The notes: generated by a model from the letters alone, not told the origin. A stretch of DNA of 64,000 bases from Alphaproteobacteria bacterium (GCA_965222315.1 OZ244951.1:962407-1026406), one strand, 5' to 3'. Counted from the first letter of the stretch, positions 1,798-58,466 are shown. Translations and numbers: made by a program.

Positions 1798-1804
1798 GCA
1801 TACT

Positions 1805-13813: not shown

Positions 13814-13844
13814 GCCGGGCGCTGGAGCCGAATGGAGGTGAACC

Positions 13845-36972: not shown

Positions 36973-37424
36973 GAGGTTGGATGCCCCTTCTATTCCGGAT
37001 CGGCTGTGTTGATTGATGGTCCAGCCGCGGCCTTTCAGGTCGTTTAGAAACCCGGTGATCGGGAAGGGCATTCCCATCCCATTTGCGCTTATCCGTCGGT
37101 AGCCGAACCCCGCCGCCGACTTTGACACTTTAACGCTTCCAGATAGAGCAAATCGCGTTTCCCTCGATCGCTAAGGCCATAACGGCGTCTTGCCAGCCGG
37201 CAAAGGCTGCAGCTCAGAAGGTCTTCATAGTTTGGCGTGAGATCAGATGGCGATGGACGTTGCACAGATTGTCGGGGTCTGTTGCATTGCCGCTTTTGGA
37301 CTGAAACGCCTTACCTTTCAGAAGGATCAGGCATTCGGGGCGAAAAGGTTTTCGATGAATGTAATCTTGCCACGGACTCCGGGCGTACGGTTGTAGGCGC
37401 TTCCCTTGACGATCATCCGGATCG

Positions 37425-37674
37425 TCTCGATGCCTACGACAATGCCATGTGCGAGAGCTTCTTCGCGACCTTGGAGTGCGAGTTGCTGGATCGCCGGCAG
37501 TTCCAGTCGCATGCAGAAGCCAGAATGGCGGTCTTCCACTTCATCGAAGGCTTCTACAATCCGACCCGCCGACACTCGGCGCTTGGATATCTATCGCCCA
37601 GCGAATACGAACGGAGGCAAGATGACCCGACACAAACTGAGTGACCCAAAAAAACTGTCCACGAAAGTGGGGCA
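37425..37674 (+). mobile_element. Truncated IS3-family element: the 3' end of orfB plus the right inverted repeat CCACGAAAGTGGGGCAACTCCA. It is ~95% identical to the complete copy at 57,541-58,868 but in opposite orientation.
   Basis: Its translation ..DAYDNAMCESFFATLECELLDRRQFQSHAEARMAVFHFIEGFYNPTRRHSALGYLSPSEYERRQDD is nearly identical to the C-terminus of the 57575-58465 product. The terminal 22 bp match the IS end. Confidence 0.75.
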
Positions 37675-37873: not shown

Positions 37874-38710
37874 CTATGACCTAAGGTGGGAGGACAAGGC
37901 CAATACCGCGATCTTGGTCCGGTTATCGACTTGCAACTTCCGCATTAAGTGGCGCACATGCAGCTTCACCGTCGATTCCGACAGGTTAAGCTCCCGCCCA
38001 ATGGCTTTGTTGGACAGGCCGCGTTCCAGTCCGTCCATCACATCAATCTGGCGCGGAGTCAGGTGGACCGTTTGCTTACCAACCTGCACCCCGATGCTCG
38101 GTTCGTCATCGCTCGCGGTCTCGTTAGGGGACAGGCAGGTACAGGATTCCGGCACGTGTTGTTCGGTCGGGGAGGGGATATGCGAACAGGGAGTCCCGTT
38201 CGCCAAGGGCCGGCTGTCCGCACCATTCTGCGCTACCGCCGTTTGCGTTGCGTGCTCGATACCGTGCGGGATTGACTTCGAATTCGGGTAGTAGTGTCCG
38301 CCTGCCTGTATGAAGTGAATGGCGGCGACTGCGAACTCGGACGGCATCCAGGTCGGAATTACGCCACGCACCTCGTGGGCGATCGCTATCTCAATGCCCT
38401 CAGCATCAATCTCGTCGACCAGAACAACGAGAGGCCGCCCCGTGAGCGCCAGCAAGCAGCGTCTCAGGGTCAGTTCTACTTCGGGCTCAACGAGCGACCG
38501 GCCGCCGATCACATATACGCAAGCTGCCGTGCCCTCCGCAAAGACGGCCTTGCCGGTACTATCCTCAGGAACCTTATCGGTCCAGGTCACACTGAGGGCA
38601 AATTCCTTGGCATGCTCCGCCAAAAGCGCCGAGATTGCGGTGCCGCGCAGAACGTGTCCGTCAAGTACGATAATTTCTCTTGGTCCATCGAACACCGTAA
38701 CCTCCCCCAC
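37874..38710 (-). CDS. LuxR-family transcriptional regulator with an atypical receiver-like N-domain (278 aa).
   Basis: C-terminal HTH LTPRQIDVMDGLERGLSNKAIGRELNLSESTVKLHVRHLMRKLQVDNRTKIAVLA. No obvious phospho-acceptor Asp context at the N-terminus. Confidence 0.65.
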   Translation of the reverse strand: MGEVTVFDGPREIIVLDGHVLRGTAISALLAEHAKEFALSVTWTDKVPEDSTGKAVFAEGTAACVYVIGGRSLVEPEVELTLRRCLLALTGRPLVVLVDEIDAEGIEIAIAHEVRGVIPTWMPSEFAVAAIHFIQAGGHYYPNSKSIPHGIEHATQTAVAQNGADSRPLANGTPCSHIPSPTEQHVPESCTCLSPNETASDDEPSIGVQVGKQTVHLTPRQIDVMDGLERGLSNKAIGRELNLSESTVKLHVRHLMRKLQVDNRTKIAVLALSSHLRS

Positions 38711-39195: not shown

Positions 39196-40629
39196 TCATT
39201 TTTTGTAAAGAGCATCGTTTTCTCCAAGGAACGCTAGGTAGTCGAACTTCATAAGCGCTCGAAAAGCGACAAAGAACGCCACGACAGCCATGATGAGAGC
39301 GCTGGAGAAAAGCCCATAAGCTGACATGCCGATTTGAAGATAAAAGCCGAGACTCACCGCAAAGTTGAGGAGGAGAAAGAGGGCTTGCAGAATGAGGAAG
39401 AGACGCGCCCGGTTGCAAACAAGGATCACGGCGCAACAGAGGTAAAAGACGGCATGGAGGAATACCGCGATCAACCCAACCCTAAGCGTCAATAGCTGGC
39501 CAAAGCTAAAATCGAGTGATTTTGCCAGCGCGGGCGCCATCAGGACCATAGCGGTGGTCAAAGCCGCCTGCAGAAAGACGATAGAAAACAACCCCGACCA
39601 AACCGTCTGCCCAAGCGCCTCGACGGAGTTGCGGATATTTTCATAGGTGGACCTGTCGGTTAGGCTAACGCGGAAAGCTCCGACCCCACTCATAAGCTTC
39701 GAGTCATGGAACAGGAATACCGCCGCAAAGGTTGGGATTGTTGAGATGTGGGCTACGAACATGACGCTGTCGTAAGGACTGTAGTGTAGGAAACCCGCAG
39801 CTGAACGCATAGCTTCTGGCGATAACCAATATACCCACTTGTCCGCCCACACCCCCATTACGGCAAGCAAAATACCGAGCCCGAGGACCCACAACCGGCG
39901 CACCGCATGCAGCATATCACGGACCGCCTGCATTAGGTCCGCATCGGATCCTGAAGCTGTCCGGCGCACTCGGATCACCGTCAGGGACACGCAGATAGCA
40001 ATGCCGACCGTAAACGACCAGATCAAGAGTTCGGTGTCGGTCTCCCCGCGCGTTCCCAGCATGATGCAGGCGACGGCAACGGTCATTCCGCCGGAGAAGG
40101 ACCAGATCAAATGGCGATAGGCCTTTAGTGCTGTCAGTGCCGCGAAGCTAGTCCACAATAGCGCCGCAGCGCCTGTCAGAAAGACGAACGCGGCTGCTAA
40201 CTCAAAAGGCGCTATACCAAGAAGTGGTACTAGGCCGAGCGCAAACCCTTCGGCCAATAGCGCGGAGCCGATGGCGGCAACCAGGAACAGCGCCGGCGCT
40301 TGGCGTACCTCGCCGCTATCCACCTCGGCCGCAATCAACCTTGCTGCGATGGCGCCTGATGGCCCTGCAACCAAGGGAGCAAGGCAGAACGCATAGACGA
40401 CGGTCAAGCGCAGATCCTCGACTGCCTCGAAGCCCAGCACCGGCGTCATTGTCACCGATACGATTGCCAGCGCGAAGATTGAGACCAGCCAAGGACCGGC
40501 CACGATGACAACTGCTCCCAGGAAAGTGATCACCGGACGCAGCAGACTGCCACCAAGTAACCATGTCAGCGCAGCGCCAGGCCCGCGGGCCGTCTCCGCT
40601 CCGTTGGCGCGATCCGTGTGAACGCTCAT
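39196..40629 (-). CDS. pelG: PelG-like 12-TM polysaccharide transporter (477 aa).
   Basis: Polytopic membrane protein of PelG size, encoded immediately downstream of, and overlapping, a PelF-like GT4. N-terminal GPWLVSIFALAIV resembles the PelG start. Confidence 0.5.
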   Translation of the reverse strand: MSVHTDRANGAETARGPGAALTWLLGGSLLRPVITFLGAVVIVAGPWLVSIFALAIVSVTMTPVLGFEAVEDLRLTVVYAFCLAPLVAGPSGAIAARLIAAEVDSGEVRQAPALFLVAAIGSALLAEGFALGLVPLLGIAPFELAAAFVFLTGAAALLWTSFAALTALKAYRHLIWSFSGGMTVAVACIMLGTRGETDTELLIWSFTVGIAICVSLTVIRVRRTASGSDADLMQAVRDMLHAVRRLWVLGLGILLAVMGVWADKWVYWLSPEAMRSAAGFLHYSPYDSVMFVAHISTIPTFAAVFLFHDSKLMSGVGAFRVSLTDRSTYENIRNSVEALGQTVWSGLFSIVFLQAALTTAMVLMAPALAKSLDFSFGQLLTLRVGLIAVFLHAVFYLCCAVILVCNRARLFLILQALFLLLNFAVSLGFYLQIGMSAYGLFSSALIMAVVAFFVAFRALMKFDYLAFLGENDALYKK

Positions 40630-42131
40630 GCCAACATTAGTTCCTCATAGAGAGCAGCATAGCGCTGCGCCGAGAGCTCTGAGGTGAAGTACGTTTCAAC
40701 TCGCTTGCGCAGTGTTTCGCCGCACCGCCGGCGCAGGTCGGCGTCACCCAGCAACTCTGCAATGGCCTCCCCGATTGCCTTGGCGTCCATTACCGGTGCG
40801 ACGCGGCCGGCAATACCAAGGTTTGGCACCTCGTCTGGCGCTCCTTCGATGATCTCCCGGCAGGACCCGACGTCGGTGGTAACGCAGGGCACCCGCGCCG
40901 CGCCAGCCTCAAGCAGTACCAGTGGTTGCGCCTCGCTGATTGAAGTAAGCACCAGGACGTCGATGCGGCCTAGATAGTCAACGATGTTGACTTTGCCCGT
41001 GAAAACAATGGTCTCCCCGAGGTCGAGTTCGTCAATCCGCCGCTTACAAAGTGCGAAATAGTCCTCGTCTTCATCGGTTGGCCCAATCAATAAAAACTCT
41101 ACGTCGGGGATCACGTTTCGCACAACTGCGGCGGCAGCGATGAAGGCCTCGATGTCCTTGATTGGCACTACGCGGCCGATCAGTGCCGCTGTTGGCCGCT
41201 TTGCCTGGCCAGACTCGATACTGTCGAAACGCTCGAGCTCAATGCCATTAGGGATAACCTGTAGCGATTTCTCACGCGCGCCGAGGGTTCGCTGGAACGA
41301 CTGGTTGGCGCCGTAGAGGGTGGTCACCTTGTCGGCGCCGGAATAGACAGCGCGAGCATAAGACTCAAAGGTCTCGATCCAGAAGGCCCTAACGTCAGTT
41401 CGTCCCTCGCTGCCAAGGCCTGTTCTGACGGTGTCGGCAATCCAGTCTGCCATCACCAGATCAATGCGGCGCTCGTTTGTGTAGATACCGTGCTCAGTGA
41501 TAGCTGACCGGGCTCCGTTCCGACCCGCAGCGCGGACCGCGAAAACCCCGGCATAGCCGGTCGAGATCGCATGATATACCCGCGCCGGTGGCGTTGGTGC
41601 CATGACTACGGAAAGCATGCCTCCAACGAGGTTCTGCCAAGCCCAAAAGAAGTCCGAAAAGGATGCATGCGGGGCGATCCGTTGGTAGCAGGTCACCATA
41701 GCAGCCCAGGCGGGCTCCGAGCACAATAGGTCCGAGTAACTGGGGGGCGTTCGCCGCAATAGCCGGCCGAGACCGGAGCGCCGCACAGGCTTTACCGCCA
41801 TCTCGGCCAATGCGTGAACCGCCTCAACGTCCCCCTCGCGGACAACCCGATAGAGCAGGTCGGCGAACGCCTCCACATCAATCAGCGGCCGCGACAGACC
41901 AGGTCGCTCAAGTTGGTGGGCGAGTGGCACCGTTTGGAAGTACGCCACATTATCCGGCAACTGGTACTTTAATTCGCGCGGCCGGTCGTCGGCGACCAGC
42001 GCGACGACTCCAAAGGCGGTGTTGGGTTGGTTTCGTATCAGCCAGTCCAACCACGACGACACGCCGCCCGCAATATACGGATAGCAGCCTTCGACAACGA
42101 TGCAGACATCCAATGTATTTGATGCACTCAC
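40626..42131 (-). CDS. pelF: PelF-like GT4 glycosyltransferase (501 aa).
   Basis: N-terminus LDVCIVVEGCYPYIAGGVSSWLDWLI matches the remembered PelF start (DVCLLLEGTYPYV.GGVSSWV). GT4 C-terminal E-x7-E region. 4-nt overlap with the pelG-like gene. Confidence 0.6.
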   Translation of the reverse strand: MSASNTLDVCIVVEGCYPYIAGGVSSWLDWLIRNQPNTAFGVVALVADDRPRELKYQLPDNVAYFQTVPLAHQLERPGLSRPLIDVEAFADLLYRVVREGDVEAVHALAEMAVKPVRRSGLGRLLRRTPPSYSDLLCSEPAWAAMVTCYQRIAPHASFSDFFWAWQNLVGGMLSVVMAPTPPARVYHAISTGYAGVFAVRAAGRNGARSAITEHGIYTNERRIDLVMADWIADTVRTGLGSEGRTDVRAFWIETFESYARAVYSGADKVTTLYGANQSFQRTLGAREKSLQVIPNGIELERFDSIESGQAKRPTAALIGRVVPIKDIEAFIAAAAVVRNVIPDVEFLLIGPTDEDEDYFALCKRRIDELDLGETIVFTGKVNIVDYLGRIDVLVLTSISEAQPLVLLEAGAARVPCVTTDVGSCREIIEGAPDEVPNLGIAGRVAPVMDAKAIGEAIAELLGDADLRRRCGETLRKRVETYFTSELSAQRYAALYEELMLA

Positions 42132-42931
42132 GCGATGCCTCCGCAGGCGTAGCGTTTCAGCGGAGGCGGCCGCACCAGCGCGCCTTTTCTCGGTAGGGGT
42201 GGTGCAGAACGCGTTGTCAGAGTGACGCGCCTTGCCAACGCCCTGAGTTCATTCGCAGAGTCCTTGTCGATAAAGCCCGACGCGGCAACCGCCTCGGCCT
42301 CCTCGGCGACGCTTCGGGTGAGTGGGCCCTGGACAGCGGCTGCGCGCACTGCCTTTGCACGATCATCAAAACTCCCTCGCAGCTTGGCATAGACCGCCGC
42401 GGCTTGCACCCGGATGGCCGGCACATCAGAAGCAAGGGCCAGTCTAAGCGCCGGCAGCATCTCCGGGCGGTAGCTCAGTGAGATCGCGGCAATTGCCTTT
42501 TGTTGCCGTTGCAGCGTGCCTGAAGCAAAAACCTCAGCAAAGGGAATCAGCGCCTCCCTACCCGCACGGTGACGGCGACCCTGCAGGATCTCCGCGTGCA
42601 AAAGCTCTGCTGTGCTGGACGGCGCTGTTGCCCTTTTTGCAGGGTTGATTTTTGATGCTAGCGCATCGCCATGGTCGAGGTCCAAGATTAGGAGAAAAAG
42701 TCCGCCGACTGGACCAAGTACAAAACCAAGCAGCAGCGAATTCGCTGTCTGCATCCGTTGGTGCGGCCAGAACACCAGCGCGACGCTGCCGATAATACCG
42801 AGAATGACGAAGTGATATCCCAATGTCAGCAACGTGGAATGGTCACCCGCAATCCAGAGCCACGTCAGCACGAGGTCAGCCGTAGCTAGGGTGGCAGACA
42901 CGGTCTGCACGTAGAGAATTGATCCAATCAT
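42128..42931 (-). CDS. PelE-like inner-membrane protein (N-terminal TM helices plus C-terminal helical/TPR-like domain, 267 aa).
   Basis: Topology and position in a coupled pelDEFG-like array. The assignment is context-based. Confidence 0.4.
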   Translation of the reverse strand: MIGSILYVQTVSATLATADLVLTWLWIAGDHSTLLTLGYHFVILGIIGSVALVFWPHQRMQTANSLLLGFVLGPVGGLFLLILDLDHGDALASKINPAKRATAPSSTAELLHAEILQGRRHRAGREALIPFAEVFASGTLQRQQKAIAAISLSYRPEMLPALRLALASDVPAIRVQAAAVYAKLRGSFDDRAKAVRAAAVQGPLTRSVAEEAEAVAASGFIDKDSANELRALARRVTLTTRSAPPLPRKGALVRPPPLKRYACGGIA

Positions 42932-43902
42932 TGCGATATCTGCTGATGATCTGAACAGGAGACCGGTCTGAGATGGATTGCCGGCCGGGAGTTATAGAAT
43001 GCCAATGCAGCTGCCAGTGCGACGGTGCACGTGACTGGCTCAGGCGACAGGATGGTTGAAGCGCTTTGATCCTCGACAATCGCGGCGCCGCCGCTATCTG
43101 TTATGGAGGCCGGGCGCCCGCGTGGCATTATCGTTACTAGGAAACCGCTGTTTCCTACGCCGACGGCAACCTCAGTGCCATCGGCAACGGCCCTCTCATT
43201 GGTTCGTCCGGCTGATGTCAGCCGACGTAGTTCCTCTGCTTCACATGCTGTCAATTTGAGCCGTACACCAACACCCAATGGCTCGTCGTCCCCGGCGTAG
43301 AATACTGCCCCCGCGAAACCAAGCGCCTCTGTAGCCTCCGTAAACTTGGCCTCGAACGACTCAGTGTCGGCCATTGCCAGCACCGACAGCGCTGGCAAGC
43401 TTCGCTCTACGCCGCCCGCGTGCGTAGTAGTAGCGATCTGCAACTCAAGCGCCGCGACGTCGCTATCCATACGATTTACTTCGGTGGCCAGATCCTCACT
43501 CATTCGCCTAAGCCGCGCGTTCTCGGTCCTAAGCTCCGCCTCCAGCCGGATCTGTGCTTGGCGGATTGAGCCAACAATGATCGCCATGAGAAGCCATTGC
43601 ACCGGAAGGATGGCGAGTTCAACGTAGTGGGCAGTGATGTCGATGCCAGCAGGCCGTGGCGGCCAATCCATGAGCAGTGCTGCCATTGCCGCAGTCGACA
43701 CGCCCACATAGAGGCCGCCCTGCACGGCGGCGAGGATCACGAAGAGCCAGTATGGATGAATTGTTAGGGCTGCGTAGAACCCTTCCCCGAAAAACAGCGG
43801 CTCAGCCGCCCGAGCCACGAGCAGCAAGACCACAGCGCCGAGCAGGCTGCGAAGGAACGGTTCATGTTCATTCGGTAAGTAAGGCTCTGATCCGGCGGTC
43901 AT
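42928..43902 (-). CDS. PelD-like membrane protein (4 TM plus cytoplasmic domain, 324 aa). It is shorter than canonical PelD, so the degenerate GGDEF module is possibly absent.
   Basis: Four N-terminal hydrophobic helices followed by a soluble domain. Operon position upstream of the pelE-like gene. Confidence 0.35.
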   Translation of the reverse strand: MTAGSEPYLPNEHEPFLRSLLGAVVLLLVARAAEPLFFGEGFYAALTIHPYWLFVILAAVQGGLYVGVSTAAMAALLMDWPPRPAGIDITAHYVELAILPVQWLLMAIIVGSIRQAQIRLEAELRTENARLRRMSEDLATEVNRMDSDVAALELQIATTTHAGGVERSLPALSVLAMADTESFEAKFTEATEALGFAGAVFYAGDDEPLGVGVRLKLTACEAEELRRLTSAGRTNERAVADGTEVAVGVGNSGFLVTIMPRGRPASITDSGGAAIVEDQSASTILSPEPVTCTVALAAALAFYNSRPAIHLRPVSCSDHQQISQ

Positions 43903-45578
43903 TTTGCGTCGTTTGCCGCTATACGCGATGACACTGGAATAACCAGATCACGCGAAGGGTTGAGATCGACCTCAGAGGCCGCCGGAACCTCGACCGGCCT
44001 GCTGTCGTCGCGGGTCATTGCAACCGTGACCAGATCTCCCGGCCGCACCGGCGTCTCTGGCGCTGCGATGAAGCGCTCAATGCCACCGGGCTCCGTACGC
44101 AGGATTGTTACGGTGAAGGTCTGTTCATCACTATGGTCTCTCGCCTCAAGTTGGGCTTGCACTGTGTTCAACTGCTCACGCACCGACGATCGTTCCATGG
44201 CGGTCGCCCGCGCAGCCATCGCCAACCTTTTGCGGCGCTCCGCCCGACGTACCGCCGCCTCTTGCCGAACAAGATTTAGTTCGGCTGTGAGGTTCAGGAG
44301 CACGTCCCGGCGCTCGAGTACCGTGCGCTCCATTGCCATCATCCGATCCTTGGCCACCTTGACCTTGTTCTCGGTGGTAATGCCCTGACTGCGTCGCTTT
44401 GCAACCGCCTCGTAGTGTTCGGCGAGGTAGGCTAGCTGCGATTTAATAACCTCGAGATGCTCTTGCGCTGCCGAGATCCGGACATCTAGGACGTCGATCC
44501 GATCCGAACTAAGATCATTTCGTACCTTCTCCTCGGCGAGCTCCGCGAGGAGGACGCCACGCTCGGTCTTGACCCTGTCAGCACCGATTGTTTTGGCAAG
44601 GGTTTCCCAAGCCTGGGTGTTGGTCGCAAGCTCAATGTCGTCGGCAAGTGCGGCGTCGATCCGGACCCGTTCGAGCATCAGACCTGCAGCAAGCGCGTCC
44701 AACTCCTGCTGGCGGGCGCGCAGGGCGGCCATCTGTAACGGCGAGAGAAGTTCAGCCCTCTCGATCGCACCCGCCTGAGCAAGCACGCGCTCCACCGTGA
44801 GACCCGGCGAGTAGGCATGCGTCCCCGGCGCTCGAACCATGCCGCGCACCAGTATTGGAGGGCGCGACGCGAACGCGGCGCTGACGCTTCCGTTCAGCCG
44901 CAGACGCTCGCTTGCGGCACGTGTTACCAGCAGCTCAATACAGGGAAGGCTGCGATTGATGACATCGACATGCCCAATGGCCGGTAAAGATACAGCGCCG
45001 TTCGCCCCGACTTCATAGGAACCCGACAGGTCGAGCCGCTCAAAGACAATGTTCTCGCTTCTCGATGCGCCGTTTGTAGAGGGTGCCGCTGCCAGCGTAC
45101 TTTGCTCAAAGAAGCGCAAGGCAAGGCGGTCGCCAAGAACTGCGACATCGATACCGCCCCCTACCTGGTCACACATCCCAATGTTTTGGGAGTTGGACGC
45201 CCCCGCTTGCGGCAGGGCCAAAGCGCTGACGCCACCTAGTTTCTCCGCTTCCTTTTCGCGGTCCTTTGTGCTGCGATCAAGCTGATAATTTCCGGCGGGC
45301 ACGTGAGTGGCGATGACTTTGTCTGTCGCATTCGCAATGCCCACGTCGTTCTCCGCGTTCAGCCAGTGCTCAATGAAAGCTGAAAGTCTGTTTCCGCCAT
45401 CGGAAGCGAAAGACTCCAAGTGGCTGATTGCGGTCGACACGGGTTTGATAATGACCCCCGTACCATATTCCGAAACGATTTTATCAGTTGCGATGGCGGC
45501 CATGCCGACGCCCACTAGAGTTATTGAGCCAAAGATCCGACTGAAACCTCGCCAGTTCATTCCGAACTCCTCCAACAA
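43899..45578 (-). CDS. Polysaccharide export protein (Wza/ExoF-like, with SLBB domains and a long central coiled coil, 559 aa).
   Basis: ..LDLSGSYEVGANGAVSLPAIGHVDVINRSLPCIELLV.. polysaccharide-export motif. C-terminal SLBB-like PGDLVTV. First gene of the minus-strand polysaccharide operon. Confidence 0.5.
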   Translation of the reverse strand: MLEEFGMNWRGFSRIFGSITLVGVGMAAIATDKIVSEYGTGVIIKPVSTAISHLESFASDGGNRLSAFIEHWLNAENDVGIANATDKVIATHVPAGNYQLDRSTKDREKEAEKLGGVSALALPQAGASNSQNIGMCDQVGGGIDVAVLGDRLALRFFEQSTLAAAPSTNGASRSENIVFERLDLSGSYEVGANGAVSLPAIGHVDVINRSLPCIELLVTRAASERLRLNGSVSAAFASRPPILVRGMVRAPGTHAYSPGLTVERVLAQAGAIERAELLSPLQMAALRARQQELDALAAGLMLERVRIDAALADDIELATNTQAWETLAKTIGADRVKTERGVLLAELAEEKVRNDLSSDRIDVLDVRISAAQEHLEVIKSQLAYLAEHYEAVAKRRSQGITTENKVKVAKDRMMAMERTVLERRDVLLNLTAELNLVRQEAAVRRAERRKRLAMAARATAMERSSVREQLNTVQAQLEARDHSDEQTFTVTILRTEPGGIERFIAAPETPVRPGDLVTVAMTRDDSRPVEVPAASEVDLNPSRDLVIPVSSRIAANDAK

Positions 45579-45630: not shown

Positions 45631-48030
45631 ATGAAGCAAAATAATAAGACCATCAACTCTGCACATGGATTAAGGGGGGTCGCTTTAGTATTGGATACTA
45701 ACCACCTAAAAGAAGTATATCCGTTAGTATTGCGCTCCATTTGGTTTAGGTTCCGGCTACCCCTTTTGGGATTTAACCTGGCTAGCGCCCTGTCTCTTGC
45801 GGCAGTCACTCTCCTGTCTGTGCCGGGAGTTGCCGCCGCAGCTTGCCGCGATGTCGCAGAGATCCCGCGCACGATCCTTGCGCTCTATGACGGTGCGCGC
45901 AGTGCTGAGCCACGTTACACACCCATTCACCGCTACGCCGAGATGCCGCTCAACCATCTCGGTTACCGCCTCGTCTACCACGATATTTCGACTGGCACGC
46001 CGCCGCCGCCTGACGCTCCACTGGCCGCCACCATCTCATGGTTCAACGGGGCAGTCGGCGATCCAGTCGGCTTTGCCACATGGCGCGCCGGATTCAAGGA
46101 CAGATGCGGCCGGGCACCGGCAACGATCGTGTTTGGGCATACCGGACTCACCAGTGCCGCAGCCGCGACAGAATCAGGTGCCGTCTACCTGAAAAGTTTC
46201 GGCGCAAAGCAAGCCGATGGAGACCTATCGGTCGGCCCGCTCACTTCGATCGCATTACTCGATCCTGGGACTATCGGATTCGAGACGGCGTTCGAGATCG
46301 CGAGAGGACCATACTCTCGTATCACCACTACGGACGAGGCCGAAAGTCGCCTCCGCCTATTGAGCGGCGATGCTGCGATCGATCTAGTGGTTCTGGCCCC
46401 GCAGGCGGTATATGCACACGATAGCGCTCTGGTCAGACACGACCCACGCGGCGGCCCGCTCTGGACCGTTGATCCGTTCGTCCTCTTTGCACACGCGCTC
46501 AACGGATCTCCGTGGCCCATTCCTGATACCACTACACTTAGCGGCCGGCGGATGTTCTTCGCTACTTTGACGCCGGAGGGCTGGTTGACGCAACTGCCGG
46601 CGTTGCAGTTCGGCGACCGCCCTCCGCTGGCATCCCAGGTCTTAGAATCCGCCTTGATTTCACAGTATCCCAGTCTTCCGTTTAGCGTCGCTCTGCTCGC
46701 GGGCGACCTTGATCCTAGCATTGCAGGGCCGGCTGCTTCGCGCGGCCGCGAAGCTGCTGTCCGTCTGTTGCAACTTCCCCACGTACAGCCGGCGACCATG
46801 GGTTTGACCATGATCCTGAATTGGGGATTTTTCGCAGAGTATGATGCAGAGGCGGAGTCTGCCGCGCTCGCGACCGGCGCAGCGCACCAGGCCGGTAGGG
46901 GCGTCCTGGTTACTGCCGTACAGAACCTCGGCACCGCGTTTTCCGAGCCTGCTGTCTCAGCACTGGACATTACACCGAACGCACCGCGCAAGTACAGCAG
47001 CGTGTCCTTTGACCTTGCCTCCGAAACCCGTGGCGCCCTCGACCGCATCGCTGCGCTGGCGCCCCCTAATCGCGCACCGCAGCTCTTCGTTTGGGGCGGG
47101 AATTCACTGCCATTTCCTGGTGCCATCGCCGCGACACGCGAAGCCGGTGCTTGGAACATGGGCGGCGGTGGCGGGCGGGCGTCGAACACAATGCCTTCAC
47201 TCTCGAACTTATGGCCGCTCGGTCTCGAAACCTCCGGCGGCCTCCAAGTCTACAACGCGCTGAGCGGCGACGCCGTTTACACTGATTTCTGGACCGGCAA
47301 CCTAATTGGCTTCCAGGCTCTAGCGCAAACCCTTGAGAGCACTGAGTTCCCGCGTCGGCTCAAGCCCTTCCAAGTATCGTTCGCTGCCCAATCGGCGCTC
47401 GCTTTCTCCAGCCTTCAAAGCGTTCGCAGCAACCTCGATTTGGCGCTCACGGCAAAGATCGCCCCGGTCCATGCGCTCCGCTATGCTGAGACTGTTGCTG
47501 GTTTCCAGGGTTTCCGCGTTATTGCCGGTGACGGTGGCCGCACTTGGCGTATCAAGGACCGTGGCGGACTGCACACGGCCCGCTTCGATGCCGCTAAAGG
47601 GCTTGCGCTCGACCTAGCCGAAAGTGACGGTGTGATCGGTGCGTCCCGCCATAATGGCTCTCTCTATGTGGGACTCGACCCGGGCAACGACTCACCGCAA
47701 ATCGTACTCGCCGATACCGACACGCCAGCCGCCATGGTTGGGGTGGGTTCGGCGCCGGCGCTGATACAGGCACGCGCGGAAATTCTCGACTTCAAGCGCG
47801 AAGGCTGCGCTGTCCGAGCCACTTTGCTTGGCTTTGACGTTGCAGATACAGAGTGGCTCGCTTCGTCCGGCCTAAGCTACGAAGTTACGCTCTACGAGGC
47901 TGACGGCGTAACACGGCGGCACTGGCAGCAGGTCACAGCCGGTCCCGATGGCCATATGGCGGTGGACCTCCCGTTGCCATCGGGTTTCCCTACCCAAATG
48001 TCCATCACTACGCCCTGTCCGCAAGGTTAG
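45631..48030 (+). CDS. Large secreted/periplasmic hypothetical protein of the polysaccharide locus (~800 aa). The start is uncertain (ATG 45631 or TTG 45730); the track ORF start of 45307 overlaps the convergent gene and is rejected.
   Basis: Signal-peptide-like RSIWFRFRLPLLGFNLASALSLAAVTLLSVPGVAAAA. No confident domain assignment. Confidence 0.4.
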   Translation: MKQNNKTINSAHGLRGVALVLDTNHLKEVYPLVLRSIWFRFRLPLLGFNLASALSLAAVTLLSVPGVAAAACRDVAEIPRTILALYDGARSAEPRYTPIHRYAEMPLNHLGYRLVYHDISTGTPPPPDAPLAATISWFNGAVGDPVGFATWRAGFKDRCGRAPATIVFGHTGLTSAAAATESGAVYLKSFGAKQADGDLSVGPLTSIALLDPGTIGFETAFEIARGPYSRITTTDEAESRLRLLSGDAAIDLVVLAPQAVYAHDSALVRHDPRGGPLWTVDPFVLFAHALNGSPWPIPDTTTLSGRRMFFATLTPEGWLTQLPALQFGDRPPLASQVLESALISQYPSLPFSVALLAGDLDPSIAGPAASRGREAAVRLLQLPHVQPATMGLTMILNWGFFAEYDAEAESAALATGAAHQAGRGVLVTAVQNLGTAFSEPAVSALDITPNAPRKYSSVSFDLASETRGALDRIAALAPPNRAPQLFVWGGNSLPFPGAIAATREAGAWNMGGGGGRASNTMPSLSNLWPLGLETSGGLQVYNALSGDAVYTDFWTGNLIGFQALAQTLESTEFPRRLKPFQVSFAAQSALAFSSLQSVRSNLDLALTAKIAPVHALRYAETVAGFQGFRVIAGDGGRTWRIKDRGGLHTARFDAAKGLALDLAESDGVIGASRHNGSLYVGLDPGNDSPQIVLADTDTPAAMVGVGSAPALIQARAEILDFKREGCAVRATLLGFDVADTEWLASSGLSYEVTLYEADGVTRRHWQQVTAGPDGHMAVDLPLPSGFPTQMSITTPCPQG

Positions 48031-48037: not shown

Positions 48038-49390
48038 ATGCAGCGCTATACTTTCGCTCTCGTTGTCGTTTGCGTCTTCGCCATCTTTGCGGTTTTCCTG
48101 TTAAAACCTGACCCGGCCACCAAACTTGAAGCCGAGCTCGCTCGTATGGCGCCAGATGAAGCCCTTGCGCAGCTTGATGCGCTGAAGGGCGACATCGCCT
48201 TTACCGAAAACCTGCAGTTGATGCACGCTCGGTTGGCAGCTTCGGCAGGTAATTTTGAGACCGCTCAGACCGCCTACGGTCAAGTCATCGACATGGGTGG
48301 CCCGACTTCCCAGATGCTTGATGAGCTTGCGGAAGTCGCTGTGCTGGCTGGCGATCTTGGCAGGGCGGTCAATTATAAGGCGCAAGCTCAGGCGCTTAGC
48401 CCCAATGCCGAACGGCGGCAGACCTTGGGCTACTGGTACCGCTTGCTTGGCGATGATGTCAGAGAGACCGAGCTTCTTTCGGCAACCGTGCCGCGCCGCC
48501 TGACTACGTTTGAGCGAGAGCGTCTGGGCGAGCTTTATCTCGATGCTGGCAATGTTGATGCCTACCGCAAATTGCTTACGGCAATATCGGAGTCCAATGA
48601 TAATGACGCGCCTTTGGCGCGCCGGCAACTTCTCGAACTTAACATTGAGGCCGGTGAGCCGGATGTGGCGCTCCAGCAAGCGCTCGACTGGCTTACTGCC
48701 GCACCACACGATGGCGATGGACTTGAGGTAAGCTTGAAGACGTTCGTCGGACGTGGCGCACTCGATGCGGCGGTTGAGCTGGCAATACGCGCTAACGAGA
48801 TCAATGCGGAGTTGGGCGCCGTCACGGCAACGGTTTTCATTGGCACTGGCCATGGTGGCGTCGGCCGCCGCATGTTGGCGCTGTGGCTCGCCAGCGATCC
48901 CGCCCTCGATAACAAAGACTGGCAAGTACTCATTCGGATCATTGGCCAAACCGGCGACCTGAGCGCCCTCCGGCGGGCGCTTGCCCGCGGCGGAAGCAGG
49001 GGAGGGTCGAATGACGTGCGGGCACCGGCTGCTGCCTTTCTACAAATCTTGCGCTACCAAGGTGCTCGTGCTTTGTCACCCTATCAAAGTATGATGACGA
49101 GCAAAACATTCGAAGACGTGCCGCTGGTCGGAGCGGCGTGGTATGGGTGGCGCCGGCAACCGCAAGAGACTTACGCCTACCTGCTGTCCGCTGCAGCGGG
49201 GCCTCTAACTGACTGGGACCGCGCTATTTGGATGTTAGTTGCCAGTGACCTGCGCGGCACGCCGTTTTATCGGGAATTGTTGGCTGGTGCGCCGGACGAT
49301 GCTGGGTTGCGCGAACTCCTTCACCGCGGTATCCGCCCGCCCGTGCCTATTCCTTCCCGTGCAGGGCAATCGGCGCCCACAAGCGATTGA
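48038..49390 (+). CDS. TPR-repeat protein with an N-terminal membrane anchor (450 aa).
   Basis: Start at ATG 48038 (MQRYTFALVVVCVFAIFAVFLL). Helical repeat composition. Polysaccharide loci commonly include TPR scaffolds (PelB/PelE-like). Confidence 0.45.
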   Translation: MQRYTFALVVVCVFAIFAVFLLKPDPATKLEAELARMAPDEALAQLDALKGDIAFTENLQLMHARLAASAGNFETAQTAYGQVIDMGGPTSQMLDELAEVAVLAGDLGRAVNYKAQAQALSPNAERRQTLGYWYRLLGDDVRETELLSATVPRRLTTFERERLGELYLDAGNVDAYRKLLTAISESNDNDAPLARRQLLELNIEAGEPDVALQQALDWLTAAPHDGDGLEVSLKTFVGRGALDAAVELAIRANEINAELGAVTATVFIGTGHGGVGRRMLALWLASDPALDNKDWQVLIRIIGQTGDLSALRRALARGGSRGGSNDVRAPAAAFLQILRYQGARALSPYQSMMTSKTFEDVPLVGAAWYGWRRQPQETYAYLLSAAAGPLTDWDRAIWMLVASDLRGTPFYRELLAGAPDDAGLRELLHRGIRPPVPIPSRAGQSAPTSD

Positions 49391-50531
49391 AGCTGTGATC
49401 CTCGACAAGATAAGGATAGAAACCGGTGATTTGCGCCTCTTTCGCCAGAGTCTGACGCAGGTCGGTGAAATCCTCGGTGCCAGCGCGCGACACCACGTCC
49501 AGGGTCAAGACTTTTAGGCCGTAGTCGAGAAAATCACTCTTCACTACAACGCGGGTACTGGGGTTTGCCATTGGTGACAGGACGTTCTCGACCGTAACTG
49601 CGTCGATAGCATCGCGGTAACTGTCGAACACAGACTTAGTGCTATTATCCGTCAATGCCTCAGCCGCGTCGCGGCCGATAAAGACGCCATTGTTGGCAAA
49701 GACTAAGGCGTTACAGTTCCATTCCCGCACACGCTCGGCGATCGCGACCACCAGTTCCATCATCGCCCGGGCGAGGCCAGGCGCGTCCCGCGGCCCCTCT
49801 GGCCACCCTGAACGGGGCCAGCGCAAATTGGTGCCTTTTGCGTATGAGTAGTAGTGCAGCACGTCATCCAGAAACAGACCGTCAATACCCGACTCCATCA
49901 ACCGGTCGACCCGCGCCAATATCACGTCGCGCCAGGCTGGCATCCAATAGGCGGCCAGGTGGTCGCCGTGACCAGCGTGTGGTCCGTACCACTGAGGCAG
50001 CTCCACACTATCGTCCGGCACGCTCTGCATCACGAAGTCGATCCAGTAATCGCGATAGTTCTCAATCTCGCTGACGTTCAAATAGCCCAACACCGGACGC
50101 TCACCATCGCGCGAGATTATGGCGATTTCGTCGGAAGTGAAGAACACTTCTCTCCCCGATTCGCTATGCAGCGCACCTACCTTCGCTACCTCGATGATAA
50201 GGAGCCCATGTGGCTGCTCGGTCAGTCCCTCAGCGGTGTAGTCTTCGCCCCAGTATTGCACGCCGAAACCACCTGCCAGGGCTCGGGTAAGATGCATAAA
50301 GCGCCTGCGGCTGGCGCTTGGCTTGCATGGTATTCCTGAGGGCTCCAATTTGTTTGCAACTGCTACTCCGTCAACCGCTGCAACCTCGGGAGCAGGGGCT
50401 TCAGCCAGAACTCCTTGTGTCGCGGGTGCCTCCTGCGCACCGGCATCCTGAAGCAGCACCAGCGCGCCGGCACACATCGCAAGCATCCAAACCAACAGCC
50501 CCATCATTGTAGCCTGCGTCTCGATCGTCAT
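49347..50531 (-). CDS. GH114-family (TM1410/COG3868-like) polysaccharide hydrolase with a signal peptide (~395 aa).
   Basis: Start at the internal M (MTIETQATMMGLLVWMLAMCAGALVLL). A TIM-barrel GH114-like motif GIDGLFLDDV is seen. The family call is recall-based. Confidence 0.4.
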   Translation of the reverse strand: MTIETQATMMGLLVWMLAMCAGALVLLQDAGAQEAPATQGVLAEAPAPEVAAVDGVAVANKLEPSGIPCKPSASRRRFMHLTRALAGGFGVQYWGEDYTAEGLTEQPHGLLIIEVAKVGALHSESGREVFFTSDEIAIISRDGERPVLGYLNVSEIENYRDYWIDFVMQSVPDDSVELPQWYGPHAGHGDHLAAYWMPAWRDVILARVDRLMESGIDGLFLDDVLHYYSYAKGTNLRWPRSGWPEGPRDAPGLARAMMELVVAIAERVREWNCNALVFANNGVFIGRDAAEALTDNSTKSVFDSYRDAIDAVTVENVLSPMANPSTRVVVKSDFLDYGLKVLTLDVVSRAGTEDFTDLRQTLAKEAQITGFYPYLVEDHSFNRLWAPIALHGKE

Positions 50532-50761: not shown

Positions 50762-52588
50762 TCACTCGACGGTCACCGATTTTGCGAGGTTTCGGGGCTG
50801 GTCCACGTCGGTCCCGCGCGTAATGGCAGCGTGATAGGCAAGGAACTGGATCGCTACGGCGTAAGAGAAGGGCTCAATCAGCGCATCGGCATCGGGGAGC
50901 GCGACGCAGCGCCAGGCGGCATCCCCGAAATCACGGCAGGCGGTGGCGCTGCCGATGACCGCAACTCTGCCCTTGCGCGCGACCACCTCGCGCAGGTTCG
51001 ACAGTGTCTTGTCCATCAACTCGCCAGCCGGCACGAGGGCGATTACCGGCGTCGCCTCATCAACGAGCGCGATGGGTCCGTGCTTAATCTCGCCTGCTGC
51101 GTAGCCTTCGGCGTGAATGTAGGTGATCTCCTTCAGTTTGAGAGCACCTTCGAGCGCCAGCGGGAACATCATTCCCCGGCCGAGGAAGAGCACGCTGCTC
51201 GCGACCGAAATCTCCGCCGCGAGGTCAGCGAAGTGAGGTTCAAGCGCAATTGTTTCGGCCATCACCCGTGGCACGCTTGAAAGCGTCTTGATTGCCGCTT
51301 CTTCATCGTCTGCGTCTAGCATCCCGCGTCGGCGGGCCACCATCAATGTGAATGCCGCAAGACATATCATCTGGGCCGTGAAGGCCTTGGTCGAGGCGAC
51401 GCCGATCTCGGGTCCGGCATGGGTCGCCAGGACCACATCAGCCTCCCGGGCGATTGTTGACGTGGTGACGTTGACAAGCGCGAGTATCTTTTGGCCCGCA
51501 GCCTTGGCATAGCGCAGCGCCGCCAACGTATCAGCGGTTTCGCCGGATTGACTGATCACCATGGTCAAGTCGCCCGCAGAAAGTGGCGGCTCGCGGTAGC
51601 GGAACTCCGATGCGACCTCAATTTCGACCGGAAGCCGCGCTAGTTTCTCTATCCAAATTTTGGCCACGTGACCGGCCAGATAGGCCGTGCCGCAGGCGAC
51701 AATGGTGAGGCGGCTTACTGTAGACCAGTCAATCGCTTCGGCCGCCGATCTGACCTGGCTGCGATCGGCCGAGGTCCACGCGCCAAGCGCCCGCGCCGCG
51801 ACAGTCGGCTGTTCACTGATCTCCTTTGCCATGAAGTGGCGGTGTTCGCCCTTGTCAGCAAGGAGGCTTTCCAGCGGCACCGTCTGAACTGGCCGCTCGA
51901 CCAGGGACCCCGAGGCATCGTGGATACCCACCCCGCTCCGCGTCACGACTGCCCAGTCTCCGTCCTCCAGGTAGCATATCCGGTTGGTCATCGGCGCCAA
52001 TGCAATGGCATCCGAGCCGACGAAAACCTCGCTTTCTCCGAAGCCGATGACCAATGGCGAACCGCGCCGCGCGCAGATCAGCATGTCAGGTGCGTTCTCA
52101 AACAGGAAGCAGAGCGCATACGCGCCTTTAAGCCTTGCCAAGGTTTCCTTCGCTGCTTCTTCGTGGCCAAGACCGAGCCGGAGCAGTGCAGCGCAGAGCG
52201 TCGCGATGACCTCGCTATCAGTCTCGGACTCGAACGTAGCGCCTGCCGCAGCCAACTCCGATCTCAGTGTTTGGTAGTTCTCAATGATCCCATTGTGTAC
52301 CACGCACACCGGTCCTGAGCGGTGCGGATGGGCGTTCGACTCGGTCGGGCTGCCGTGGGTTGCCCATCGTGTATGACCGATGCCGCTGCTGCCAGGGAGT
52401 GGATTCTGGTCGAGTAGGTCAATCAAGGCTGCAAGTTTGCCCTGAGCACGCCGCCGATTAAGGTGGCCGCAATCGACAGCTCCCACACCGGCGCTATCAT
52501 AGCCGCGGTACTCAAGCCGCCGTAACGCATCAACCACGATCGGGATTGCCGGTCTTTCGTTGGCCAGGACGCCGATGATACCGCACAT
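50762..52588 (-). CDS. glmS: Glutamine--fructose-6-phosphate aminotransferase.
   Basis: N-terminal MCGIIGV (Cys2 nucleophile). Two SIS domains. C-terminal ..KSVTVE. Length 608 aa. Confidence 0.9.
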   Translation of the reverse strand: MCGIIGVLANERPAIPIVVDALRRLEYRGYDSAGVGAVDCGHLNRRRAQGKLAALIDLLDQNPLPGSSGIGHTRWATHGSPTESNAHPHRSGPVCVVHNGIIENYQTLRSELAAAGATFESETDSEVIATLCAALLRLGLGHEEAAKETLARLKGAYALCFLFENAPDMLICARRGSPLVIGFGESEVFVGSDAIALAPMTNRICYLEDGDWAVVTRSGVGIHDASGSLVERPVQTVPLESLLADKGEHRHFMAKEISEQPTVAARALGAWTSADRSQVRSAAEAIDWSTVSRLTIVACGTAYLAGHVAKIWIEKLARLPVEIEVASEFRYREPPLSAGDLTMVISQSGETADTLAALRYAKAAGQKILALVNVTTSTIAREADVVLATHAGPEIGVASTKAFTAQMICLAAFTLMVARRRGMLDADDEEAAIKTLSSVPRVMAETIALEPHFADLAAEISVASSVLFLGRGMMFPLALEGALKLKEITYIHAEGYAAGEIKHGPIALVDEATPVIALVPAGELMDKTLSNLREVVARKGRVAVIGSATACRDFGDAAWRCVALPDADALIEPFSYAVAIQFLAYHAAITRGTDVDQPRNLAKSVTVE

Positions 52589-56744: not shown

Positions 56745-57574
56745 CCCACTGATCTGTCGTTAAGCCGTCCGGCAGATATGCGCATGTTGGTTGACTTTCG
56801 CTTAAGCAGTGAGCGTCGCAGAGAGTCCCACTTATGCAGACAATTTCTCCCACCTCAGCTTGCCGCGCCAACTAACCTTGCGGCCAGCTAGCCCAAATAG
56901 CTGCCTGGCAATGCTAGCCGGCCTCTTCCTGGCACGCCGGAGTGAGCGAGGTTGATGTCATTGCAACGAAATGATCGGGCGGATGCCCCTTCACGTTGGC
57001 CATCTCGCGGCGCTGCGGTGGCGTTATTAACGGAGGAACCCACGTCAGACGTTCATGTCTCGAAGATTCATTTCCCCAGACGAAACTTCCCGGCTTGCGG
57101 AGAGGTTGCCCTGGTCGTTTGGACAAGTGGTCAACTTTAGCATGGGGGTTCAGGGTCGCATAAAACTTGTCCTCTGCATAATCCGGCGTGCGAACCGCAC
57201 CGGGTTTACCGGAGGCTGATTGACGTTAGTTGCGCGGCCATGGCTTCAGTTTCCAGAGTTGCGTAGTAGTTGGCTTCGGCTTCCGCGGGCGGGATGTTCC
57301 CGATGGGTTCAAGCAGACGACGGTTGTTGAACCAGTCGACCCATTCCAATGTGGCGTATTCGACGGCCTTAAAGCTGCCGCCAGATCTTCCGGACGCCGT
57401 AGATTGGCCCTTTATCTTCGAACACGCGACGGATCTCGGGGCGCAAAGCCTCATCCCGGCGGGCATGATCTGACAGCCGGCCCGGATCGGCCCGCTTGGC
57501 CAGATGATCAAAATAGGTAGACGGGTAGGAGTGTCATAGCTGGAATTGCCCCACTTTCGTGGACAGTTTTTGGG

Positions 57575-58465
57575 TCACTCAGTTTGTGTCAGGTCATCTT
57601 GCCTTCGTTCGTATTCGCTGGGCGATAGGTATCCAAGCGCCGAGTGGCGGCGGGTCGGATTGTAGAAGCCCTCGATGAAGTGGAAGACCGCCATCCTGGC
57701 TTCTGCATGCGACCGGAACCGCCGGCTATCCAGCAACTCGCACTCCAAGGTCGCGAAGAAGCTCTCGCACATGGCATTGTCATAGGCATCGCCGACCGAT
57801 CCGGTTGAAGGACGAACCCCAGCCTCCTTGCAACGGTTGCCAAAAGCCAACGACGTATATTGCGAGCCATTATCGGAGTGATGGATGACATCGCCGGGCT
57901 TGCGTACCGCGACCGCCATATCAAGGGCAGCCAGCACCAGCCGTGTCTTCAGGTTTGTTGAAAAGGCCCAGCCGACGATCCGGGGGACCAAGCATCTAAC
58001 ACGACAGCCAGATAGATGAAGCCCACCACGGTTGGGACGTAGGTGGTGTCGGCTACCTGTTAGCCGGTAGGCGATGCTAGCATCGCCGTAAGGCCGGAGT
58101 GCATTGGCACTTTTGGCAGCAAAGTTCCGGCGCACCAGGTCGTTTGCAGACTGGTGATCCGGATGCGGCCACGTCGTTGCCGGCGCATTCCGGCGGCGGC
58201 TGACGCCTGTCAGAGAGGCCTTCCGCATCAACCGGGCCACGCGCTTCTGGCCAACGGCCACACCTTCGGCATGCAGTTCTGCGCGGATGCGGGGCGCGCC
58301 ATAGGTGCCATGGGATCGCGCATGGATCGTGCGGATCTGCCGGGTCAGATTGGCATCCGCCGCAGCCCGAGCCGATGCTAGCCGTTTGCGCCACGCATAA
58401 TAGCCGGATCCAGAGACCTTCAGGACGCGTGCCATCGTGCGGATGGGATAAATGGCCTGGTGCAC
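57575..58465 (-). CDS. IS3-family transposase OrfB (integrase-core DDE). It is possibly inactivated; see the frame anomaly under findings.
   Basis: ..YPIRTMARVLKVSGSGYYAWRKR.. and DDE core motifs. Confidence 0.75.
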   Translation of the reverse strand: MHQAIYPIRTMARVLKVSGSGYYAWRKRLASARAAADANLTRQIRTIHARSHGTYGAPRIRAELHAEGVAVGQKRVARLMRKASLTGVSRRRNAPATTWPHPDHQSANDLVRRNFAAKSANALRPYGDASIAYRLTGSRHHLRPNRGGLHLSGCRVRCLVPRIVGWAFSTNLKTRLVLAALDMAVAVRKPGDVIHHSDNGSQYTSLAFGNRCKEAGVRPSTGSVGDAYDNAMCESFFATLECELLDSRRFRSHAEARMAVFHFIEGFYNPTRRHSALGYLSPSEYERRQDDLTQTE

Positions 58466-58466
58466 G

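Follow-up and report, generated by a model that had tools for sequence, protein, structure and literature searches.

A rare Pel-type gene cluster of alphaproteobacteria combines a Pel synthase core with an OPX-family protein carrying a predicted helical hairpin

Introduction

In current models, synthase-dependent polysaccharides of diderm bacteria leave the cell through a β-barrel porin coupled to a tetratricopeptide repeat (TPR) domain, and the Wzx/Wzy and ABC-transporter pathways are the ones to which OPX and PCP proteins are assigned. According to a 2022 survey of OPX proteins, crossover of OPX/PCP into synthase-dependent pathways had not been identified (PMC9603273). Here we describe a gene cluster on a 64,000-nucleotide (nt) stretch of DNA from an alphaproteobacterium (GCA_965222315.1, OZ244951.1:962407-1026406; hereafter, the window) that presents a natural case of a Pel synthase core coupled to an OPX-family hairpin protein, with no porin in the conserved neighbourhood. 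At its centre is a minus-strand operon at positions 39196-45578, which a preliminary description of the window had read as pelDEFG-like genes led by a Wza-type exporter.

The locus resembles the pelABCDEFG operon of Pseudomonas aeruginosa in its PelF and PelG orthologues, in a PelD with membrane, coiled-coil and GAF parts, in the deacetylase/β-rich fold of PelA, in the TPR protein encoded beside the PelA-like gene and, probably, in the use of a UDP-hexosamine substrate. Unlike the P. aeruginosa system, it has no PelB porin or PelC, its PelD lacks the GGDEF-like receptor, and its PelA lacks both the hydrolase domain and the CE21 catalytic residues that were checked. It also differs in having a separate GH191-type hydrolase (GH, glycoside hydrolase), an OPX/hairpin lead gene and an arrangement in divergent units.

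A split PelA and a GGDEF-less PelD are already known from Gram-positive bacteria. Bacillus cereus pelDEA(DA)FG with pelA(H) and the streptococcal pel operons (PMC7112168) combine a deacetylase-only PelA with a separate hydrolase and have neither PelB nor PelC, as in the locus described here, and streptococcal PelD likewise lacks a GGDEF domain (PMC7112168). Those systems, however, belong to monoderm cells without outer-membrane export, require an active PelA(DA) and contain no OPX-like or TPR gene (PMC7112168), whereas the present host is a diderm proteobacterium.

In the literature searched we found no paper on this cluster variant, no OPX-family protein with an adaptor hairpin in a synthase-dependent operon, no diderm pel neighbourhood conserved without porin and PelC, no conserved pseudo-CE21 PelA and no proteobacterial precedent for a GGDEF-less PelD. 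Surveys probing with PelC would have missed the variant, and three of its core genes are annotated as hypothetical. Its conserved PelA pseudoenzyme tests whether PelA serves as a scaffold in a way separable from deacetylation, and the locus offers a proteobacterial PelD without a cyclic di-GMP (c-di-GMP) receptor and a native genetic context for the new GH191 family.

The operon encodes a Pel synthase core

The operon proposed in the preliminary description is real. Five co-directional open reading frames (ORFs; 43899-45578, 42928-43902, 42128-42931, 40626-42131 and 39196-40629) follow one another on the minus strand with a 4-nt overlap at every junction, which argues that they are translationally coupled.

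The two distal genes encode the synthase core. PelF (40626-42131, minus strand) is a predicted cytoplasmic GT4 glycosyltransferase, the polymerase of the system. It matches the NCBIfam equivalog NF038011 over the full profile (positions 1-489 of 489) with 397.9 bits against a cutoff of 100, scores 77 bits or less on all other GT4 models, and contains DUF3492 (PF11997; E=9.5e-68) together with a GT1 (Glycos_transf_1) domain. Compared with the canonical pelABCDEFG operon of Cupriavidus metallidurans, which supplied all Cupriavidus reference proteins used here, PelF is 37% identical to its counterpart (E=1.9e-92). PelG (39196-40629, minus strand), a predicted polytopic inner-membrane protein of the Pel synthase complex with about 12 or more hydrophobic segments, matches PF16933 with 191.9 bits (E=2.6e-56; profile positions 17-452 of 452) and is 23.6% identical to Cupriavidus PelG (E=2.6e-21). 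These hidden Markov model (HMM) and pairwise matches uphold the earlier assignment of both genes and identify their predicted products as orthologous to the polymerase of the Pel system and to the membrane protein that partners it.

The cluster is rare. It was found at 17 loci, mostly from Paracoccaceae, among 185,579 species genomes, which agrees with the earlier suggestion of an undescribed variant, mainly alphaproteobacterial. Its hosts are seven Paracoccus species, Rubellimicrobium, Loktanella, Jannaschia, Cereibacter azotoformans, a Rhodobacteraceae metagenome-assembled genome (MAG), four further alphaproteobacterial MAGs (two of them Amaricoccus) and two gammaproteobacterial MAGs. The set comprises eleven genes, encoding an RTX protein, GlmS, a hydrolase, a TPR protein, a PelA-like protein, an OPX-like protein, a PelD-like protein, a protein in the position of PelE, PelF, PelG and a LuxR-type protein. 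The gammaproteobacterial MAGs have the same genes in a colinear arrangement, in contrast to the divergent units of the window. For every gene of the cluster dN/dS lies between 0.14 and 0.30, and the genes are under purifying selection.

Downstream of pelG lies a gene for a LuxR/GerE-type transcription regulator (37874-38710, minus strand; PF00196 GerE, E=8.4e-19), a candidate regulator of the locus. In 13 of the 17 loci a homologue comes right after pelG or, at loci without pelF and pelG, after the PelE-position gene; in one (L006) it is inverted.

With Cupriavidus PelB and PelC as queries, tblastn returned no match at E<=0.01, neither from the window nor from the 17 related loci, as the preliminary description had supposed, and no gene for a porin, TolC, type I secretion or a partner ABC transporter was found near the locus in the window.

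The lead gene encodes an OPX-family protein with a helical hairpin

The first gene of the operon (43899-45560, minus strand; ATG at 45560, ORF extendable to a TTG at 45578) encodes a protein of 553 amino acids (aa). It begins with a hydrophobic segment (aa 6-24) and a variable linker of ~100 aa. Poly_export follows at aa 143-217 (nt 45134-44910), and after it comes SLBB, interrupted at aa 274-475 (nt 44741-44136) by an α-helical hairpin of ~200 aa. Against Poly_export (PF02563) the window protein reaches 22.6 bits, below the Pfam cutoff of 28, but the domain is matched by all 21 aligned homologues (best E=9.7e-9), and SLBB by six of these 21 (best E=1.3e-5). The alignment runs from a typical SLBB start (VRGxVRxPG...LAQAG) through ~200 helical residues to a typical SLBB end (VTIxR...VRPGDLVTV). 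Two cysteines, C130 and C207, are invariant in the family, consistent with a periplasmic location of the protein. There is no lipobox, no Cys occurs in the first 129 residues, and Wza_C finds no Pfam match; the last 40 aa vary among homologues, are not hydrophobic and come out disordered in the structural model.

By its Poly_export and SLBB domains the predicted protein is a member of the OPX family, but it is not of the Wza type because it has neither a lipobox nor a Wza_C-like helix. The preliminary description of the lead gene as a Wza/ExoF-like SLBB exporter is thus right about the family and wrong about the type: a lipoprotein signal and a Wza_C helix are missing, and a HlyD-like hairpin is present.

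In an AlphaFold2 (AF2) model the hairpin (aa 274-475) has a predicted local distance difference test score (pLDDT) above 90. Foldseek ranks two type I secretion adaptors first among PDB folds, LipC (5nen; E=7.6e-4, with TMt reaching 0.79) and HlyD (5c22); EmrA (4tko) comes next, and Wza appears only at rank 47. A probable single N-terminal anchor and a predicted ~100 Å hairpin (estimated from helix length) set in a small β domain are features shared with EmrA and the membrane fusion proteins HlyD, LipC and AprE. In contrast to these proteins, the OPX-like protein has no lipoyl or β-barrel domain, its hairpin lies inside SLBB behind Poly_export, and the locus contains no ABC transporter or TolC gene. 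PF25994 (HH_AprE) is matched faintly by three homologues, and no HlyD/AprE-type Pfam match at E<=0.001 was obtained in the family. The likeness to HlyD, LipC and EmrA is a fold-level match; sequence-level homology is not established.

Among described OPX proteins, those of Class 3 (Myxococcus WzaX/S/B; PMC9603273, PMC12819527) come closest, as they also consist of Poly_export and SLBB without a Wza_C helix, an architecture implying that the outer-membrane channel must be another protein and that a helical partner in the inner membrane must be contacted. Class-3 proteins operate in Wzx/Wzy pathways, measure ~256 aa, are mostly lipoproteins and are accompanied by a separate PCP and an adjacent PgaA-like porin (PMC9603273, PMC12819527), whereas the lead protein belongs to a synthase-dependent operon, has 553 aa and an N-terminal hydrophobic anchor, carries the hairpin in the same chain and has no porin adjacent to it. 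Under the classification of PMC9603273 the lead protein counts as Class-3-like, an OPX protein that has no outer-membrane helix; here it is fused to an adaptor-style hairpin and probably anchored in the inner membrane. Its family is small, with 26 clusters among 5.8 billion proteins, and in all 17 loci its gene is followed by those for the PelD-like and PelE-position proteins.

A PelD homologue ends where the c-di-GMP receptor domain would begin

The second gene (42928-43902, minus strand) encodes a 324-aa protein with ~4 transmembrane helices, a coiled coil and a degenerate GAF region. Direct searches yielded a weak DUF4118 match and no match in the PDB; nothing useful was returned when the PDB and NCBIfam were searched directly with the PelD-like, PelE-like and OPX-like proteins, and BLASTP and hhalign comparisons of the cluster families with the single Cupriavidus PelD, PelE, PelB and PelC sequences were non-significant. 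Homology to PelD became visible only with the intermediate sequences from an exhaustive HMMER search, in which a profile of six sequences recovered 817 relatives, many of them 445-480 aa long with GAF_3 and an additional C-terminal domain. A family profile of 50 sequences, the window protein included, has P. aeruginosa PelD entries as its top PDB matches (4euv, 4eu0, 4etz, 4etx and 4dmz; E~1e-6) and aligns with C. metallidurans PelD over 388 columns (hhalign probability 96.1%, E=2.9e-9). In this alignment the window protein spans the ~4 transmembrane helices, the coiled coil and the GAF-like region, and it ends at aa 324, where the GGDEF region of its relatives starts. All cluster-linked homologues are 317-350 aa long, ORF-calling artefacts aside.

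The profile comparisons identify the 324-aa protein as a predicted PelD homologue that lacks the c-di-GMP-binding GGDEF-like receptor domain. The earlier PelD-like label therefore stands as to homology, visible via profiles only, but not as to this domain. Because the receptor domain is absent, the truncated protein probably does not bind c-di-GMP.

The third gene (42128-42931, minus strand) encodes a 267-aa protein with N-terminal membrane helices and a C-terminal HEAT-like α-solenoid that has no match in Pfam or NCBIfam. Its AF2 model (pLDDT 85) shows helices at residues 2-27, 33-54 and 56-95 followed by a helical repeat domain, and the hydrophobicity of the N-terminus also fits membrane helices. 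The closest PDB folds, alphaRep/HEAT proteins, are not significant matches. HEAT_2 is found in two homologues, and JGI names one homologue PelE. The position of the gene and the membrane-plus-helical-repeat architecture of its product fit the description of PelE as two transmembrane helices plus a TPR-like domain; however, a 49-sequence family profile aligns with Cupriavidus PelE at an hhalign probability of 2%. The name PelE-like used previously thus reflects gene order and gross architecture, and the homology it implied was not borne out.

PelA is split, and its deacetylase module is degenerate

P. aeruginosa cannot produce Pel without deacetylation. The preliminary description overlooked two divergent plus-strand genes that separate the operon from the hydrolase gene. 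The first encodes a PelA-like protein (~45631-48030). The ORF opens at 45307 and the tblastn match begins at 45862; the true start is probably downstream of 45631. The protein has a signal peptide ending in AxA right before a conserved Cys. It matches residues 242-809 of Pseudomonas thermotolerans PelA (PDB 9cgy; E=1e-29) and residues 318-929 of Cupriavidus PelA (E=7e-46). As both alignments begin past the hydrolase domain, the protein corresponds to a PelA without that domain.

Seven catalytic residues have been described for PelA (PMC12022489): D528 acts as the base and is activated by H526, a triad of D530, H600 and H604 binds the metal, and H761 is the acid, activated by E723. The check made here covered six of them, H526, D528, D530, H600, H604 and H761, whose positions in the alignment with Cupriavidus PelA are occupied in the window protein by T, T, E, M, M and A, respectively. 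Motif MT1 (nt 46561-46584) reads T-L-T-P-E in place of H-I-D-G-D, MT2 (nt 46792-46824) MGLTM in place of HTYSH, and in MT5 (nt 47371-47394) the acid His is replaced by Ala; the HMMER alignment to 9cgy concurs at MT1. None of 15 cluster-linked family members keeps the full set of the six checked residues. The family does have conserved motifs of its own, GGGGG and PRRLKPF, and its dN/dS of 0.14-0.30 is comparable with that of PelF and PelG. Since the catalytic residues are replaced yet the family motifs are kept at such dN/dS values, we conclude from these comparisons that the PelA-like protein is a maintained, putative pseudo-deacetylase.

The second overlooked gene (48038-49390, plus strand) starts 7 nt downstream and encodes a membrane-anchored, all-helical TPR protein of 450 aa with a hydrophobic segment at aa 4-22 and a TPR_16 match (E=2.6e-4). 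It follows the PelA-like gene throughout the 17 loci. The family profile matches generic TPR structures (E~1e-16), with PelB absent from its matches, the hhalign probability against Cupriavidus PelB is 3%, and the protein has no porin domain. This porin-less protein without PelB-specific similarity is the only PelB candidate at the locus, possibly a functional analogue of the PelB TPR scaffold.

The hydrolase half of PelA is encoded by a separate gene, as proposed earlier. This gene (49347-50531, minus strand; ORF extending to 50642) encodes a TIM-barrel glycoside hydrolase, secreted or anchored, of the TM1410/GH191 type. The GH114 affiliation first given to it is weak (E=8.6e-4); its best match is the TM1410/MJ1477 family TIGR01370 (E=1.9e-21; 76 bits, below the equivalog cutoff of 181 bits), and the TM1410 entries of the PDB, 2aam and 9euz, are matched at E=2e-11 with ~20-25% identity, as estimated from the alignment. 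TM1410 is the founding structure of CAZy family GH191, of which one member cleaves Pel and prefers GalN-rich stretches (PMC12054363). The hydrolase family also aligns with the hydrolase domain of Cupriavidus PelA (residues 105-306; hhalign probability 68%, E=4.8e-5). The Asp of an FLDD motif (nt 49874-49863) and the Glu of a TVEN motif (nt 49595-49581) are invariant in 14 homologues and fall on the nucleophile and the acid/base of the PelA hydrolase. The GH191 endo-α-1,4-galactosaminidases TM1410 and Env-GH191 (PMC12054363) provide the best sequence matches and share the catalytic Asp/Glu, whereas the predicted window enzyme differs from the characterised members by its low identity, an extra N-terminal region and insertions. 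It is a candidate endo-α-1,4-(N-acetyl)galactosaminidase that would take the place of PelA's own hydrolase domain. Together, these alignments resolve PelA into a predicted GH191-type hydrolase with its catalytic Asp/Glu pair and a PelA-fold protein in which the catalytic residues are replaced.

Precursor and RTX genes extend the cluster

The glmS gene (glutamine-fructose-6-phosphate aminotransferase; 50762-52588, minus strand; GATase_6, GATase_7 and two SIS domains) had been described as immediately adjacent. It is present, in an ORF extending to 52648, but as the neighbour of the hydrolase gene rather than of the pel operon; its true start is probably at the MCGIIG motif. It is linked to the cluster in 11 of the 17 loci, and some relatives add a mutase and an epimerase to the glmS region. 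Flanking genes were annotated in three loci, two from Paracoccus (L002, L003) and one from Amaricoccus (L004). In L002 and L003 (both 594-4990) glmS is flanked by a PGM/PMM (phosphoglucosamine/phosphomannomutase-type) gene and an NAD-dependent sugar epimerase gene, while L004 (3962-4981) has the epimerase only; in all three the epimerase gene adjoins the cluster. The epimerase is a candidate UDP-GlcNAc 4-epimerase. Neither gene is found in the window, where glmS abuts the hydrolase gene.

Beyond glmS lies a gene for a 1343-aa RTX protein of the type I secretion substrate type (52713-56744, minus strand), a homologue of which adjoins the cluster in ~10 of the 17 loci. The RTX repeats at aa 1163-1335 are the only part with any match; the first ~1160 aa match no family. 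They include three N-terminal repeats of ~160 aa, and the DNA contains a direct repeat (55700-55999 and 56183-56482) that is 84% identical. Its linkage to the cluster hints at a shared function, perhaps that of a secreted adhesin or of a protein that binds the polymer. A deacetylase-like domain had been suspected in it. Neither this nor any other enzymatic domain emerged from searches with Pfam, NCBIfam, phmmer against the PDB and BLAST against PelA, which returned RTX repeats only, and the deacetylase-fold module is instead the divergent PelA-like gene.

A proposed mechanism and its alternatives

The locus represents a rare Pel cluster variant, mainly of Paracoccus-type alphaproteobacteria, that has no porin, no c-di-GMP sensor domain and no active deacetylase in its neighbourhood. 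We read it, with a probability of roughly 0.6, as a diverged synthase-dependent machine for a Pel-type amino-sugar exopolysaccharide that works as follows. GlmS, joined in relatives by the mutase and the 4-epimerase, would feed UDP-GlcNAc/UDP-GalNAc to PelF, which would polymerise them. Translocation across the inner membrane would fall to PelG, the truncated PelD and the PelE-position protein and would not be gated by c-di-GMP; the LuxR-type regulator encoded next to the locus would probably exert control at the level of transcription. Once in the periplasm, the chain may meet a non-catalytic binding scaffold made of the inactive PelA-like protein and the TPR protein, analogous to the PelA-PelB TPR complex, and be trimmed by the GH191-type enzyme. 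Oligomers of the OPX/hairpin protein, held in the inner membrane by its anchor, would form a periplasm-spanning conduit. This conduit would take over from the PelB-TPR/PelC funnel and deliver the polymer to a channel of the outer membrane whose gene lies outside the locus. Because the dedicated deacetylase appears to be dead, the product may be fully N-acetylated and not cationic Pel, barring the action of an unlinked deacetylase.

Several points weigh against this reading. All functional readings for this variant are based on sequence comparison and predicted structures. The window covers 64 kb of a ~5.2-Mb genome, so a PelB/PgaA-like porin, PelC and an active CE4/CE21 deacetylase could lie elsewhere. 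Homology of the TPR protein to PelB and of the PelE-position protein to PelE is not demonstrated. In the model of the OPX-like protein the β domains are of low confidence (overall pLDDT 66), its N-terminal segment could be a cleaved signal peptide (AIA-TD) and not an anchor, and its oligomeric state, the orientation of the hairpin and its outer-membrane partner are hypothetical. The one characterised GH191 enzyme prefers deacetylated, GalN-rich Pel (PMC12054363), which fits awkwardly with a non-deacetylated product. Finally, three Amaricoccus-type loci (L017, L018 and L020; ~10000-14200), from two Amaricoccus MAGs and an alphaproteobacterial MAG, have no adjacent pelF or pelG. They keep the OPX-like, PelD-like, PelE-position, PelA-like, TPR, hydrolase and RTX genes, and nothing between the PelE-position gene and the LuxR gene corresponds to pelF or pelG, so the synthase genes and the accessory module need not be linked.

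This last observation also favours the best-surviving alternative, in which an ordinary Pel system has its PelB/PelC (or another TPR-porin) and an active deacetylase elsewhere in the genome, and the OPX-like, PelA-like and TPR proteins are accessory, acting in chain length or surface anchoring. Class-3 OPX proteins, which lack an outer-membrane helix, do work with separately encoded PgaA-like porins, and the visible 64 kb leave room for such genes. Yet none of the 17 loci, each ~21 kb, contains PelB, PelC or a porin despite otherwise tight synteny; the OPX-like gene heads the operon, coupled and always linked to the PelD homologue; and the place of PelA is taken by a pseudo-deacetylase under purifying selection. 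We regard this explanation as unlikely, albeit worth keeping in view.

The mechanism can also be put in a stronger form, which we consider doubtful. Here the Pel-type polymer would leave through a new trans-envelope conduit, made of one protein anchored in the inner membrane that joins OPX ring domains to a tripartite-pump-style hairpin and docks on a TolC-like or other unlinked outer-membrane channel, that fully replaces the TPR-porin and PelC; the PelA pseudoenzyme and the TPR protein would act as non-catalytic chaperones, and the product would be fully N-acetylated and free of c-di-GMP control.

Signs of mobility suggest another alternative, that the locus is a decaying or non-functional, horizontally acquired island whose losses reflect erosion after transfer mediated by an insertion sequence (IS). 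A 225-nt left arm (37428-37652), an IS3-family end in a truncated transposase fragment (37237-37644, plus strand; rve_3/rve_2), and a right arm (57567-57791) within an intact IS3-family orfAB (57575-58841, minus strand) form an inverted repeat. Its arms are 96% complementary, lie 19,914 nt apart and bracket the 20-kb LuxR-pel-glmS-RTX segment, whose GC content of 0.55-0.61 is below the 0.64-0.70 of the upstream DNA. The repeat and the lower GC content suggest mobility of the locus. In Paracoccus liaowanqingii (L023; NZ_CP040764.1) the cluster is plasmid-borne, with the operon at 125-7229, at the start of a 255-kb non-mobilizable plasmid record. In the closest relative, a MAG (L001), the PelA-like, PelD-like and hydrolase genes are frameshifted. 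However, such frameshifts could be assembly errors, all ORFs in the window are intact and coupled, and the pseudo-deacetylase keeps its strongly conserved motifs. The same losses are common to 15-17 species, including the two gammaproteobacterial MAGs, at the dN/dS values given above. Erosion is an improbable account of the locus.

A generic GT4/Wzx-type O-antigen or capsule cluster resembling pel, a notion to which the OPX gene (typical of Wzx/Wzy and ABC-transporter pathways) and a second GT4 gene at 60995-62026 lend some colour, is refuted by the HMM results, since PelF scores 398 bits against 77 or less for other GT4 models and contains the PelF-specific DUF3492, the PF16933 profile is matched by PelG over nearly its full length, homologues of PelD and PelA occur in the locus, and no Wzy, Wzz/Wzc, initiating phosphoglycosyl transferase or ABC transporter is encoded within the bounds of the inverted repeat.

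Genomic surroundings

The NCBI annotation of the P. liaowanqingii plasmid names pelF and pelG and lists the OPX-like, PelD-like and PelE-position products as 'hypothetical protein'.

Outside the IS-bracketed segment, the GT4 gene (60995-62026) is accompanied on the minus strand by genes for a metallophosphoesterase (62030-62851) and an enoyl-CoA hydratase (60120-60908). An enoyl-CoA hydratase gene stands beside the LuxR gene in the closest relative, whereas in the window one lies beyond the RTX gene and the IS element, a difference that suggests IS-mediated rearrangement.

Upstream of the segment, ~25 kb of the plus strand (10942-36408) encode an extracellular contractile injection system (eCIS/PVC-like) that is unrelated to the pel locus. 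It includes a tail sheath protein (PF17482), Pvc16_N, a winged-helix AAA ATPase, an eCIS core domain protein, a 1104-aa DUF6519/β-helix protein and several proteins of 700-930 aa that match no family. The left end of the window, also unrelated, contains two DUF1214/DUF1254 genes (2398-3471 and 8085-9083, plus strand), a gene for a Phenol_MetA_deg (MetA-pathway) outer-membrane-type protein (3525-4505, plus strand) and an alkyl sulfatase-like gene (6076-8070).

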